Below, in pieces: positions 26,895-54,304 of a DNA stretch of 64,000 nt. Positions within the stretch are counted from its first letter, which is position 1. The number at the start of each line of letters is the position of its first letter. The DNA is from Carcharhinus amblyrhynchos (taxonomy: Eukaryota), in contig OZ336878.1 in assembly GCA_965287045.1 (NCBI GenBank), forward strand, positions 47,492,001-47,556,000, written 5' to 3'. The notes beneath the pieces are model-generated. The model did no database searches. It saw nothing but the letters and a program-made list of their open reading frames with translations, and was not told where the DNA came from. The position numbers and the translations under genes were made by a program.

Positions 26895-27645
26895 CAGTTG
26901 TCCAGCAGTGATGTATGCTATGTTGCCCATGATGCCCTTGGTGGACGTCCCCTGGGTGGCTGGGACCTGGAGGGCCCCAGCTGACTTGCGAATGGCACTG
27001 TTTCGGTGCCACTCTTTTCATCTCACTGTTCTAGATGCCCCAGTGAGAGGAAGGGAGGAATCAGAAGGTCTTGGGACATCCGGGATCTCTGGGTGGAAGA
27101 CCCCGGCATGGACTCAAGCGTTCCGTCCTCTCTTGGGGTCAGTGGCTCGAGGACACTTCACAGGATGACAGCGTAGCTTGACTGATCTCCAGAAGCTCCA
27201 GCGTCACCTGGCTCTGCCAGTCCTGGAGGCCTAAATGCGTCTGCCCCATGATGTGTGATTCCTCAGCTCTCACCCTCTGAAACTGGGCCCAGCTCTGGAT
27301 CCCCTCCTCTACAGTATTCTGTGAGTGAGCCAGGCGCTGGAGCACCTTAGCAGTGGCCCTCTGAGCCTGGGCTAAGTTGTCAAGGCTCACAGCCATGGCC
27401 TGCTGTGTCTCCAGAATGCCAGTGAAAGAACCTAGCCCTGGCCGGCAGTGTCTATTACATGCCTCCGATACCCGCGGCCATTGAACGGTGTGCCTTCTGG
27501 ATGCAAACACACTCCCCTGTGGTCCGTTGTGTCTCCAGGATGGCCTGGACCCTGTCACCCAAGAGTACGGACCCCTGAGCCAGACTTTCCACTGCGGACG
27601 CCACCTTTACAGTGTTGGCCTGGGTCTCATGCTGTGTCAGGGAGA
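26895..27645 (-). mobile_element. Probable Harbinger second-ORF relic (coiled-coil region)
   Basis: VASAVESLAQG, ILETQQAMAVSLDNLAQAQRATAKVLQRLA heptad-like repeats; family assignment from memory. Confidence 0.45.
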
Positions 27646-29526
27646 TTTGCCCTCCCAAAGATACACAAGGCAAACACACCCGGCCATCCCATCATATCAG
27701 GCAATGGGACCCTGTGTGAGAACCTCTCCAGCTACGTCGATGGCATCCTGAAACCCATTATACAAGGAACCCCCAGCTTTTGTCGCGACACTATGGATTT
27801 CCTACAGAAACTCAGCACACATGGAGCAGTTGAACCAGGGACATTCCACGTCACAATGGATGCCTCGGCGCTCTACAGCAACATCCCCCATGATGATGGC
27901 ATTGCTGCAACTGTCTCAGTGCTTAACGCCGACAACTGCCAGTTTCCAGATGCAATTTTACAAATCATCTGCTTCATCCTGGATCACAATGTCTTCACCT
28001 TCAACAACCACTTCCTCATCCAGACACGTGGAACAGCCATGGGGACCAAATTCACACCTCAATATGCCAACATCTTCATGGACAGGCTCAAACAAGACCT
28101 CTTCACCGCACAGGACCTTCACCGATGCTATACACTAGATACATCGATGACATTTTCTTCCTTTGGACTCATGGTGAATAATCACTGAAACAACTGTATG
28201 ATGACATCAACAAGTTCCCCCACCATCAGACTCACCATGGACTACTCTCAGGAATCGGTTGCATTCTTGGACACACGCATCTCCATCAAGGACAATCACC
28301 TCAGCACTTCATTGTACCGCAAGCCCACGGATAACCTCACGATGCTCCACTTCTCCAGCTTCCACTGTAAACACGTTAAAGAAGCCATCCCCTACAGACA
28401 AGCCTTCCATATACACAGGATCTGCTCAGATGAGAAGGATCGCAACAGACACCTCCAGACGCTGAAAGATGCTCTCATAAGAACAGGATATGGTGCTCGG
28501 CTCATCGATCGACAGTTCTGACGCGCCACAGCGAAAATCCGCACCAACCTCCTCAGAAGACAAACACGGGACATGGTGGACAAAATACTCTTCGTTGTCC
28601 AGTATTTCCCCGGAGCGGAGAAGCTACAACATCTTCTCCGGAGTTTTCAATACATCATTGTTGAGAACGAATATCTCGCCAGGGCCGTCCCCATACCGCC
28701 ACTCCTTACCTTCAAACAACCACACAACCTCAAACAGACCATTGCTCGCAGCAAACTACCCAGCCTCCAGGAGAACAGTGACCACAACACCACACAACCC
28801 TGTCACAGCAACCTCTGCAAGACGTGCTGGATCATTGACATGGATGACATCATCTCACGTGAGGACACCATCCACCAGGTACACGGTGCATACACTTGCA
28901 ACTCGGCCAACGTTGTCTACCTGATACGCTGCAGGAAAGGATGTCCCGAAGCATGATACACTGGGGAGACCATGCAGACGCTACAACAATGGATGAATGA
29001 ACATTGCTTGACAATCACCAGGCAAGACTGTTCCCTTCCTGTTGGCGAACACTTCAGCGGTCATGGGCATTCAGTCTCTGATCTTCGGGTAAGCATTCTC
29101 CAAGGCGGCCTTCACAACACACGACAGCGCAGAGTCGCTGAGTAGAGACTGATAGCCAAATTCCGCACACATGAGGACGGCCTCAACCGGGATCTTGAGC
29201 TCACATCGCACTATCTATAACCCCCATGACTTGCCTGGGCTTGTAGAATCTCACTTACTGTCCTGTCTGGAGACAATACACATCTCGTTAACCTATGCTA
29301 ATGTTCTCTCCACTCACATTGTCTGCATCTTTAAGACTTGAATAGCAGGTTGGCTATAAAGACTTGCATTCTAATCAGTATTCTGTAAACTGTGTGTGAC
29401 TTTATAAGCCCTTCTCTGATCAGAACCTTCCACATAGCTGACTAAGGAAGACCGTTTCTGAAAGTTTATGGGATTACTATCAAATAAATTGGTTGGACTC
29501 AAACCTGGTGTTGTGAGACTTCTTAC
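27645..29526 (+). mobile_element. Penelope-like retroelement (RT + GIY-YIG endonuclease + pLTR), 5' truncated and frameshifted
   Basis: LPKIHK..PIISG, TMDASALYSNIPH, QTRGTAMGT, RYIDDIF, FLDTRI..YRKPTD, NVVYLIRCRKGC..YTGET. Confidence 0.95.
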
Positions 29527-29529
29527 AGG

Positions 29530-29832
29530 GTTGTGGGGGCCAGCAATGAGGCCAGCAATGTCAGTGGGGATTGGATGGCAGTGATCTGGATGCTGGGAGG
29601 TCTTTTCAGAAATCTCCCAGCAAGGTGTGCATGCACGGGGTATCCGCTCATCCCGCTGATTTCAGGCTTTTTGGCGCAAATAGGCCCTGGCCTCTGGGTT
29701 TTTAATAATTTTCATGATTGTGACCTCTGCATTGCACGGAATGGGAGATTCAGGTCTGAAGCTGCATTGAAAAACAGTCGTGATCTAGACCAGTTTTCTT
29801 TTCAATCCAGCACTTTTGGGAGAATCTCCCCC
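29530..29832. mobile_element. Harbinger-like non-autonomous element fragment
   Basis: Ends GGGAGAATCTCCCCC; similar to 17.8-18.24 kb. Confidence 0.5.
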
Positions 29833-29849
29833 AACATTTCCAATCATTA

Positions 29850-30675
29850 CAAACAGTGCAAAAAATAGACATATTAACAATTTCCTTAACTTCAATATTT
29901 TACAGTGCTCAGTTCCAAGACATTACATACATTACTGTTCAGTTCTTCAACAAACTATATACATTCATCACATTTCTCTATGTGCTGTTTTTACAGAGTT
30001 GTACACAGTTATGTAATCCGAGGGTGTTCTACAGTTACTGGCCCCTTGGTCTGCCTTGGTTGAAAGGCTTTAAATAGTGGCCTTTCCCCATTGTGCCTTT
30101 GCGGTAGCTGCCTTAGCATGTAGTCCTGGACCTTGGAATGTACCAGTCTGCAACACTCGGTCGAGGGCAAATCTTTGCACTGGAAGATCAGTAGGTTTCG
30201 GGCGGACCAAAGAGCATCCTTCACCGCTTTAATGACCCTCCAGCAGCAGTTGATGTTTGTCTCAGTGTGCGTCCCTGGAAACAGCCCGAAGAGCACAAAG
30301 TCCTGCATCATGGATCTGCTCGGGATGAACCTTGACAAATACCACTGCATCTCACTCCAAACCACCTTTGCAAAGGCACGTTCCATGAGGAGGTGTATGA
30401 CCATCCATCGCAGCTACTTCGAGGGCAGCGTGCAGTGGTGTTGAGACCTCGGGTGTGCATGAAGGATCTGACGGGAAGTGTCCTCTCACCACCAGCCAAG
30501 TCAGGTCTTGGCACTTGTTTGAAAGTTCTAATGATGAGGCATTCTGCCAGGCGACACTCACAGTCTGTTCAGAGAACTAACTGACAGGATCCACCATCTC
30601 CTTTTCCCTCAGGGCTTCAAGGACATTACGCGCTGACTACTGCTTGATCACCATGTGGTCAAAGCTGTGTTTCTG
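29850..30675 (-). mobile_element. Tx1-clade LINE ORF2 C-terminal region and 3' UTR
   Basis: WQNASSLELSNKCQDLTWLVVR, ARCPRSSC, HLLMERAFAKVVW, VKDALWSARNLLIF. Confidence 0.85.
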
Positions 30676-30687
30676 GAAAAAAAAAGA

Positions 30688-30995
30688 TTTTTTTTGTTTT
30701 TATTCCAATTCAATCAAATCAAGTCCAATTCAGAGTTTCAACTAGTTGGGACATTCCCGATCAAGCTGACAAAGGCTCTCACCTCCCGTCTTGGGCTTGA
30801 TCTACATGATCCAAGCTGATTGGAGTAGACGTAGCTCCTCCTCCAAGGCTTGATCTCATTTGCATCTTAGCCAAAAGGTCGAGATGCTGCTTTTAAAAAC
30901 TGCTTCAAATAAAGCTAAAATGTAACCTAATGACTTCAACCAAGCACAGCAGGTCAATACTACACTTGATCTTAGCCAAAAGGCCAAGAAGTGAT
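30688..30995 (-). mobile_element. U2 snRNA-headed element (SINEU-like, or Keno/Tx1 5' end)
   Basis: Two U2 5'-like segments (30957-30995 and 30864-30887), unique body and A-rich tract at 30688-30703. Confidence 0.7.
30957..30995 (-). pseudogene. U2 snRNA 5' fragment (nt 1-39)
   Basis: ATCACTTCTTGGCCTTTTGGCTAAGATCAAGTGTAGTAT vs U2 ATCGCTTCTCGGCCTTTTGGCTAAGATCAAGTGTAGTAT (2 mismatches). Confidence 0.9.
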
Positions 30996-33307: not shown

Positions 33308-33455
33308 TGATGTGGAGATGCTGGCGTTGGACTGGGGTAAACACAATAAGAAGTTTTACAACACCAGGTTAAAGTCCAACAGGTTTATTTGGTGGTGGTT
33401 GCTATCAAATAAACCTATTGGACTGTAATCTGGTGTTGACCTTACTGTGTTTACC
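33308..33455. mobile_element. Short inverted pair of Penelope pLTR ends
   Basis: Fold-back of the pLTR 3' end, flanked by duplication TACCCAACTGACCA. Confidence 0.8.
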
Positions 33456-35039
33456 CAACTGACCAACAGACGGATTCCAACCAGAATGGACCCCATCCTC
33501 ACCCACTTTAATACAGAATAGCACATTGCATTTAAAATGATCGGTGACAGCTTCCCCCACGGCTACAACACTGTAACCCTACCCAGTATGGCTGCAGAAT
33601 ACGCCCTTCCAGAAGCTGATTTTCCTATCAGTTAGATATTCAGCCCAGTAAATGACATTATCTGAGTGAACCTGCTTTTTTCATCACCAAGACTTCAGAA
33701 TTAGGCTATGGGAGCAAAGCCTATCACAGTGGTTAAGAATAAATCAAATAACACTTGAAGAAAAATATTAAAAGATGCAAAGAATAAGCAGGAACCTTGG
33801 AAAAGGGCAGATGGGCTGTTGTAGGCTGTTGGCAGAAAGCTGGATACAATTAACTGGATGGCCTCCTTTGAACTGTAGTTAAGTTTACAATCATATTCTA
33901 AGAAGTACTTTGATCAATTTTTTGACTAGGCAGAGATAATGAGTTTCTCTTCAATTGAAGCAAGTTGTCAAGAGCGCTTTAATTTTCATCCTCCACAAGA
34001 AGCTATGGACCTTTGAATTTCTGCAGCTCTTTACAGATATGAGCCACTGATGATTTGTAATCCCTGTTTCAGAAACATTAACTGCAGGACCACAGCGGTT
34101 TAAATTTAAAGGGTTATGAAAATGTTTGACAAACCTCGTTTACAAACACAGCACATTGCCAAAAATCATATAGAGATAAATTATGATACTTCTTGCACTA
34201 AATGTCATTGGAATTAAAATGATGCATGACTCATCTCAGACAAAATGAAACTCTTTACGCAAGCACATACCTTGCCAGCTTGGATAGACCCCTACTTTTT
34301 TTTAATGTAACTGCCTCATAGCACCATAATCCCCTAGCTCCAATAAATCTGAATTTCGATTAGCTATGTTTAATTATTTTTTGTTTGTTGAATGGAGATG
34401 TTAGATATGTGGGAAATGTGGGAAGTCGTTGCCTCTGTGCCAGGAAGAAAAGAACTAGGTCCTTTATTTAAGCCAAAGAGAACAGAAAAGCATGTCTAAA
34501 GACAATCACCAAGGAAACAGAGGTGGACAGAAGGTTTTTACACCAAGAAAAAGATGAATTGCAAGGCCGGTGGTCTGGAGAGCTGCGAATAGCTGAATCT
34601 CATGAGCCAGTTTGAAGTTTATAAGGAGACACTCTGATCTGACTGTAGGTGCTAGCAAAGAAAGAGTATAGTGCTGCCTCCAAGTTACCAACTGAGCATA
34701 TATATTGTCAGCGTAGCCTACCTAGTCCTAAATTATTAGCTTCCACCCCCTCATCTGCCTCCTTCATTCCATTTACCCATTTTCAGTTTATGAAACTTAT
34801 TGAGCACAGAATGGGTCAAGGACAAGGCCTAACAGTGGACAAAGTGGACAATGTTAACGATGGAAGAACAAAGACACAGCCATTTTCTTGGGAACCTTAG
34901 TGATTCTGAGGAAGACAAAGGAGAAAGAACAGGGAGATCAAAGAGGTGAAGTTGGACTTAAGCCCATGCATAAAACGCTCTGGAGGCCTCTTGCAGTGTT
35001 CCTCTGCAGAACTCCACTTCCCCCCATTTCTCCTTTTTA

Positions 35040-53385: not shown

Positions 53386-54304
53386 TGTTGTTCACTAAGA
53401 AAGTCGCAGGGCAGGGAAATAGAAGACATGTCGCATACATTATCAAAAAGGGGAAATCCGTGGGTAAACAGACTGAACATATCTGCACCATTAGACCATA
53501 TGACATAGAAGCAGAAGTAGGCTTCTTGACCCATCGAGTCTGCCTACTGCTAGAATCTGCCCAATCTGGCTTATAGCATCATGACACTTCAGTTAAGATC
53601 ACAGTGCGATAGCTGGGGTAAATACAACGGTATTCATGGGTCCTAATGTAAGACTTTAATCAATGACAACAATACTTGGTGTGGCCAGGATGTAAAGAAA
53701 TGTGTTTGGATGTTCCATGTTGCAGTCTGGAGCAAGAGTAGGATTTAGGCCAGATGTGTGCCATGTAGAGCAATACAGAGAATGCCTCAAACCTGATGGC
53801 TAGGTTTTTACCAGCAATGGAGAGGTAGTATTGCTCCCACAAGCCTAGTTTCTATTCTACTGTGGTTGCATGCTCCTTCCAGTTTTTGCTTCCCCATTCC
53901 CACCCATTGGCCTGCCAAACCCTGCTGAACCATATCCCCAGCAGTCTCAAACAATCTACCCTGACAGTAAAAGGGACAAAGGATCAGTCTGCCCAGTTCC
54001 CCCAAAAAGTGGGCTGGAATTCTCCCATCCCACCCGCATTGGAATTCTAGTGGGGTGGGGGGGAGCAGACTATGTAAAGGCCCATTGAAGTCAGGCAGGT
54101 GAGTGTGGCCGGAGAATCCCATCCATGGCCTTGTTCTTGAGCAATTTATTTTGACTCTTGAGGCCAGTTTGGGATGGTGACGAATTCTCATCAACTTGCA
54201 AACTGACAGTTCATGTAATATTTTAAACCGAGCTTTTCCAGTGCCTGGAATGATCACCCCACTTGGGCCCACATCCATCTGGAAGGTCTTGGCAAACCAG
54301 TAGA

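Follow-up and report, generated by a model that had tools for sequence, protein, structure and literature searches.

The window analysed here is a stretch of 64,000 nucleotides of the Carcharhinus amblyrhynchos genome (contig OZ336878.1, positions 47,492,001 to 47,556,000), in which two retroelements lie almost in contact on the minus strand. The first, at 30995-30688 (-), is a full-length copy of an A-tailed, U2-headed, SINE-like retroposon of ~310 nt, and the second is a C-terminal piece of a Tx1 ORF2 that begins at 30681 on the same strand, ~6 nt past the A tail of the SINE. In window coordinates, the features are:

30688..30995, minus strand: full-length U2-headed SINE of ~310 nt; it belongs to the main subfamily, differs by 5.2% from the majority of that subfamily and shows no convincing TSD
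30956..30995, minus strand: head, U2 snRNA nt 1-40 from U2 +1, including the branch-point recognition sequence (Rfam and alignment)
30924..30952, minus strand: fold-back arm, matching the reverse complement of U2 nt 11-39 imperfectly; base-pairing with the head is predicted
30891..30923, minus strand: remaining spacer, with a small predicted hairpin and a T5 run (fold and sequence)
30849..30890, minus strand: second U2 5' piece, covering about nt 1-3 and 9-31 and interrupted by an 11-nt insert (alignment)
30858..30865, minus strand: octamer motif ATGCAAAT, present in the majority sequence of each of the five subfamilies and in 90 of 103 copies
30759..30855, minus strand: a duplicated hairpin unit (predicted), the two versions of which share the base stem but not the upper stem
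30688..30758, minus strand: 3' part, with relatives in a sister U2-derived family, comprising a third predicted hairpin, AATAAA (30704-30699) and a short A tail
29832..30681, minus strand: separate, 5'-truncated and decayed Keno/Tx1 copy, ORF2 C-terminus and 3' UTR (DNA alignment)

Rfam placed U2 at 30995-30797 (52.8 bits, E 2e-8, above threshold) and no other family there. Compared with the intact U2 genes of the same genome, U2 nt 1-39 of the head matched at 37 of 39 positions and the second U2 piece (SINE nt 109-132) at 22 of 24, and these two segments are the only parts of the element that align to those genes. The 11-nt insert with ATGCAAAT lies at 30865-30855 (-), the five bases before the second piece resemble the end of the upstream flank of a U2 gene, the A tract reaches 30688, and the T5 run of the spacer is putatively Sm-site-like. 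Much of this layout had been recognised in the initial annotation of the locus, which described U2 sequence starting at +1, a second U2-like segment interrupted by an octamer-bearing insert, and an A-rich tract followed by a Tx1 ORF2 C-terminus in the same orientation, and all three descriptions hold. The spacer of ~70 nt that it noted is also present but is not featureless, as its first 30 nt are the fold-back arm, and the U2-headed part and the Tx1 fragment that it described directly downstream proved to be two separate elements. Copies of this SINE give above-threshold Rfam matches to U2, as here, and can therefore inflate the annotation of U2 genes.

That the U2-headed part represents a multi-copy, non-coding SINE family is nearly certain. 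A search of the genome with the body returned 2,008 candidates, the best 40 of them at 91-93%, and exact matching found 3,041 copies of a 15-mer from the body and 1,253 of a 26-mer spanning the insert, with no matches to either reversed control; the body, which the initial annotation had called unique, is thus repeated thousands of times and is not single-copy. Since the 15-mer was present in 19 of 38 and in 20 of 32 SINE copies found by other routes, we estimate ~5,000-6,000 copies genome-wide, or more if old copies are counted. Copies align from the U2 head, or a point within it, to the A tail, and the flanks beyond are unique and unrelated. Among 103 distinct copies with matches of at least 150 nt, the 5' end fell at U2 +1 in 17 and within nt 1-24 in 89. 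The sequences formed five clusters with divergences from the majority of 3.6% (20 copies), 4.9% (67 copies, including that of the window) and 8-10% (16 copies), the youngest copy being 1.7% diverged. TSDs of at least 10 nt flanked 14 of 83 copies, compared with 0.5% in shuffled pairings, and none was found around the window copy.

All full copies carry U2 nt 1-40 as their head with the junction fixed at nt 40. A third U2 piece occurs in L028, L071 and L139. Extra U2 heads end variably, at nt 37-42, and in the three copies that reach further upstream the additional head is accompanied by 16, ~6 and 3 bases that resemble the flank of a U2 gene. Direct tandems of SINE copies were seen at L065, L101, L114, L135, L137, L139, L143 and L251. 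Almost all copies are dispersed, and homing to the U2 site is rare (3-4 loci). A classical Pol III SINE was considered and rejected: for the window copy Rfam returned U2 only, with no tRNA, 5S or 7SL head, and T4 and T5 runs lie within the first 105 nt.

The spacer and the head are predicted to form a fold. The first 30 nt of the spacer matched the reverse complement of U2 nt 11-39 at a score equalled in 2 of 500 shuffles, and in the youngest subfamily the arm is predicted to pair with the head through 25 pairs, 7 of them G-U, covering the branch-point sequence, followed by two duplicated hairpins and then a third. Fold z-scores were -3.7 for the window copy and -7.3 and -4.7 for the two main subfamilies, in which the branch-point bases were predicted to be paired with probabilities of 0.62-1.0. 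Pairs are kept between the young clusters, which hints at selection on the fold of the SINE, but covariation between subfamilies was thin (two-sided changes: one in the fold-back, three in the third hairpin), and 2-3 pairs are broken in the old subfamilies. The antisense arm is predicted to mask the branch-point sequence of U2. In the arm (SINE nt 44-72, window 30952-30924), all seven transitions relative to a perfect complement are A-to-G or C-to-T, with pairing kept as G-U, and the A-to-G changes in so long a stem could be captured RNA editing. The first four bases of the octamer are paired in a predicted stem, and the motif need not be an enhancer.

The origin of the body is indicated by a sister family of short U2-derived elements (L138:1530-1700 and L140, minus strand), which consists of a U2 5' piece, one hairpin and a diverged but recognisable U2 nt 56-135. 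None of 500 shuffles aligned as well to U2 nt 56-135 as the sister family did, and none of 500 as well to the 3' half of the SINE body. Compared directly, the 3' part of the SINE and U2 nt 56-135 were not significantly similar (8.6% of 500 shuffles). Because the sister family aligns to the 3' half of the SINE and retains U2 nt 56-135, an older U2-derived monomer is the probable ancestor of the body. Sister family copies were also observed directly behind Keno tails.

The Tx1 family of 30681-29832 is Keno-type and targets U2 at nt 37/38. Its identity comes from DNA alignment, as Pfam gave nothing useful on the Tx1 fragments of the window: the piece, which lacks its final ~50 nt and A tail, is 80% identical over 790 nt to a near-intact array copy of 5,395 nt, and its relatives extend further 5' without any SINE. 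In Pfam searches the 5,395-nt copy (contig C98) had an intact-looking ORF1 (CCHC) and ORF2 (APE endonuclease, RT, zf-RVT); its named relatives were amphibian and fish Tx1-type proteins, including the zebrafish 'transposon TX1 149 kDa protein', and no named Keno sequence was returned. One Tx1 tail joined to U2 nt 38 led us to inspect the U2 arrays, where insertions near nt 37-39 had been suspected, and Tx1 insertions were found there repeatedly, joined to U2 at nt 38 on the 3' side and at nt 38-57 on the 5' side. Genome-wide there were 57 exact junctions of an A tail with U2 nt 38, and the 30 examined comprised 28 Keno, one SINE and one bare U2 head, with Keno 5' junctions at U2 nt 26-57. At L192, a Keno in a promoter-bearing U2 gene has its 5' junction at nt 40, with a 3-nt duplication, leaving a U2 piece of the same length as the SINE head. 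Exact Keno tails number 1,165 against these 57 U2 junctions, and most Keno copies are dispersed outside U2. Among 15 matches to a junction pattern, eight were dispersed full-length Keno copies with no array flank, whose U2 heads start at nt 1, 1, 1, 2, 2, 9, 10 and 25 and run to nt 56; as the pattern required a U2 head, this eight of eight is not a fraction of all Keno. The Keno head, U2 1-56, is joined to a 5' UTR unlike that of the SINE.

The U2 genes themselves were of two kinds. On C98 and C334 (L041-L060, L121-L126, L129-L130) a variant U2 is arrayed in tandem units of 407 bp, with only ~215 bp between genes, and these arrays are heavily invaded by Keno. The canonical U2 genes are found on C45 in units of 10.55 kb. 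At C45:1795690-1849000 (L184, L195-L200), one promoter-bearing U2 gene contains about 13 Keno copies arranged head to tail; the copies are partly deleted, and a short stretch of U2 forms the joint at each. A second and older Tx1-type ORF2 fragment, 69% identical to the C98 Keno, lies in the window at 53746-54001 (-).

The SINE and Keno were linked first by position. When tails were chosen by motif alone, 4 of 30 had a SINE within 40 nt behind them, and when loci were chosen by Tx1 similarity, 7 of 29 had one directly behind the Keno tail; at about 2 SINE copies per Mb the chance expectation is about 4e-5, an excess of ~3,000-fold. A general preference of the SINE for A runs could also produce the stacking. 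An exact search for the tail plus the U2 motif gave 20 matches, of which 18 were SINE copies, one a sister family copy and one a U2-headed Keno. Often one and the same short target sequence stands before Keno, between Keno and SINE, and after the SINE, and its presence three times points to successive insertions at one nick; the order of insertion in stacked pairs was mixed, with no fixed order. Transduction of the SINE as a 3' flank of Keno was rejected, as the linkers between Keno tail and SINE vary by locus and match local TSDs. Outside U2, a crude hot-spot comparison gave three SINE-Keno flank pairs against a control mean of 0.9 (maximum 3), and by eye two sites in other repeats were used by both elements (L003 with L070/L089, and L091 with L179). 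Beyond the A tail there was no homology between the SINE and the full 5,395-nt Keno (best E 0.7) and no common 3' tail. None of 59 SINE loci ran on into Keno and one was preceded by it, with the same counts, none and one, in 30 further and partly overlapping loci.

The second link is the U2 site. Three dispersed SINE copies continue into U2 from nt 38/39. Two of them, L181 and L182, were both of the matches to a search for SINE-U2 junctions; they could be insertions into dispersed U2 pseudogenes, which would show targeting and not transcription. The third, L210, continues to near the 3' end of U2 and has no U2 sequence upstream, which fits a truncated copy of a read-through RNA. The C45 U2 cluster also holds a decayed unit made up of U2 upstream flank (81-85%), U2 nt 1-15, an antisense RPS18 retrocopy and SINE nt 25-168; the processed RPS18 copy in its head lies at L205:40-370 (Pfam Ribosomal_S13, E 5e-17). 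An intact SINE-bearing U2 gene with its promoter was sought in several places: there were no SINE copies in 60 kb of the C98 array and 20 kb of that on C334, 130 kb of the C45 cluster held only the decayed unit, and none of 11 promoter-flank pattern matches in the U2 clusters, inspected or scored by Rfam as whole genes, led into a SINE. The 600 nt preceding the intact U2 gene on C45 contain no exact octamer.

Based on these data, our preferred reading, which we hold with fair but not high confidence, is that the SINE is copied by the enzymes of Keno and transcribed from U2 genes invaded at the Keno site. Its first part, Keno as the partner, is very probable; U2-site copies and stacking behind Keno tails support the proposal of the initial annotation that a snRNA-derived SINE was mobilised by Tx1. 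The second, transcription from the U2 promoter, is likely, and dispersed full-length Keno copies whose U2 heads begin near +1 make it likely that both elements are transcribed from invaded U2 genes. For the suggestion that mobility is tied to that promoter, the U2-site copies, the decayed promoter-linked locus and the U2-headed Keno copies speak indirectly in favour, and the failure to find an intact promoter-bearing master speaks against. Mechanistically, the Keno endonuclease would place a SINE into a U2 gene, where the upstream remnant, U2 nt 1-40, with a junction that Keno also makes, would become its head. The external U2 promoter would start the RNA at +1, and the RNA would be polyadenylated at its own AATAAA or would sometimes run on into the U2 3' half; the arm would fold over U2 nt 11-39 and hide the branch-point sequence. 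At A-rich sites across the genome, Keno RT would then make copies of the A-tailed RNA that lack a promoter, and repeated re-entry into U2 would add further heads, which would explain the two U2 pieces of the SINE. snRNA promoters are usually coupled to 3'-box processing and not to polyadenylation, and this counts against the model.

At this locus, the Keno fragment is most likely the older of the two, the SINE having inserted afterwards at its 5' edge. It is also conceivable, though we give it a minority share, that the junction arose in one event, by a jump of the RT from Keno RNA to SINE RNA. The direct abutment and the absence of a TSD around the SINE would fit such a jump, which keeps its standing because the 3' end of the Keno piece, where a joint TSD would show, is lost. 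However, the Keno piece looks older (8.9% non-CpG divergence from a loose nine-copy cluster, compared with 4.0% for the SINE), and elsewhere stacked pairs show separate TSDs.

For the family as a whole, the same SINE and the same Keno partner could be reconciled with transcription from other upstream promoters or from an internal element such as the octamer, with U2 heads gained when the template is switched to U2 snRNA, the route that Kojima (2015) put forward for SINEU of crocodilians. We regard this as unlikely. Conservation of the octamer in 90 of 103 copies, the varied ends of the extra heads and the missing intact master in a U2 array would all agree with template switching, but the head junction is fixed at nt 40 in every copy and Keno makes the same junction in a U2 gene, the bases upstream in extended copies resemble the genomic flank of U2, which mature U2 RNA does not contain, some copies are followed by the U2 3' half, and 5' ends stop at +1. 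Less probable still is mobilisation by another L1/Tx1 family, with nearness to Keno due only to insertion into A tails. This would account for the lack of a tail common to SINE and Keno, for Keno adjoining only one of 59 SINE loci and for the crude hot-spot result, but three copies lie at the exact U2 site of Keno, stacking far exceeds chance, and the ages of the two elements overlap. That the whole of 29832-30995 is one internally deleted Keno, as the initial annotation had entertained, or that the SINE is a Keno 5' UTR, can practically be discounted: the common strand, the ~6 nt between them and the U2 heads of Keno would favour it, but the SINE lacks homology to the full-length Keno, which refutes it for this Keno subfamily, the Keno head of U2 1-56 sits on a different 5' UTR, none of 59 other SINE loci runs on into Keno, and AATAAA, an A tail and TSDs belong to the SINE itself.

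If the promoter-borrowing reading is extended, the SINE may be a self-renewing parasite of snRNA genes, a promoterless element that homes by means of Keno, takes the U2 promoter and the first 40 bases in each round, and disarms the captured branch-point sequence with a selected antisense arm; we put this forward tentatively, at slightly under an even chance. If true, it would account, outside crocodilians, for the transcription of snRNA-headed SINEs and for the stacking of their U2 heads. A young, abundant SINE and its likely partner occur here in one genome together with U2 genes that have been invaded, dispersed Keno copies with U2 heads, SINE copies that continue into the U2 3' half and a promoter-linked locus in decay, and because these intermediates are visible side by side, the model is directly testable.

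Two other features of the window were recorded. At 27436-29340 (+) there is an RT element decayed across several frames (weak RVT_1, E 5e-4), which is probably Penelope-like to judge from its motifs, and three Keno copies (L152, L158, L161) lie at one position in a repeat related to it. A strong inverted repeat at 33336-33456 underlies a sub-threshold MIR841 match; its repetition in up to 40 loci makes it likely to be the end of a mobile element rather than a microRNA.

Our search of the literature found no report of a snRNA-headed SINE in sharks or of one tied to Keno; Repbase, Dfam and subscription journals lay outside the search, and the family may be deposited there. A term search of PMC5499810 found no mention of snRNA, SINEU or Tx1. 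Keno, a member of the Tx1 clade with an APE endonuclease, is described as U2-specific and as using the same U2 site as Utopia (PMC4640811, PMC4494074), and the window family resembles it in its downstream U2 from nt 38/39, its CCHC ORF1 and its ORF2 with APE, RT and zf-RVT, but differs in that most copies here are dispersed outside U2. Utopia elements are RLE non-LTR elements, an endonuclease class other than that of Keno, and in reptiles they have a 20-bp TSD (PMC4640811) that is similar to the overlap at U2 38-57 observed here; no Utopia-like protein came up in this analysis. R2, which is co-transcribed with 28S rDNA (as cited in PMC4494074), offers a precedent for a promoterless element expressed from its target gene, as proposed for the SINE, with the difference that the SINE would use a Pol II snRNA promoter and is a non-autonomous passenger.

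The closest parallel is SINEU, which Kojima (2015, PMC4494074) found only in crocodilians. SINEU-1, -2 and -3 are short (<500 nt), A-tailed elements with a U2-derived head and thousands of copies, with repeated 5' addition of snRNA pieces, tandem insertion and no LINE tail in common; their partner was inferred from common targets to be a Tx1 family related to Keno, an internal oligo-T argued against Pol III, and the means of transcription was left open. The window SINE is alike in its U2 head, its short, non-coding and dispersed character, its poly-A and TSDs, its recurrent 5' addition of snRNA and a target preference common to a Tx1 family. In contrast, the target and partner of SINEU are Mariner-N4_AMi and Tx1-Mar, whereas those of the window SINE are U2 or Keno tails and a true U2-targeting Keno, and copies at the U2 site and an antisense arm over the head are, relative to that account, features of the window SINE only. 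The two families were compared by description, and a convergent origin is likely. We concluded that the SINE works like crocodilian SINEU, and that what appears to be new is a non-crocodilian host with a U2-targeting Keno as the likely partner.
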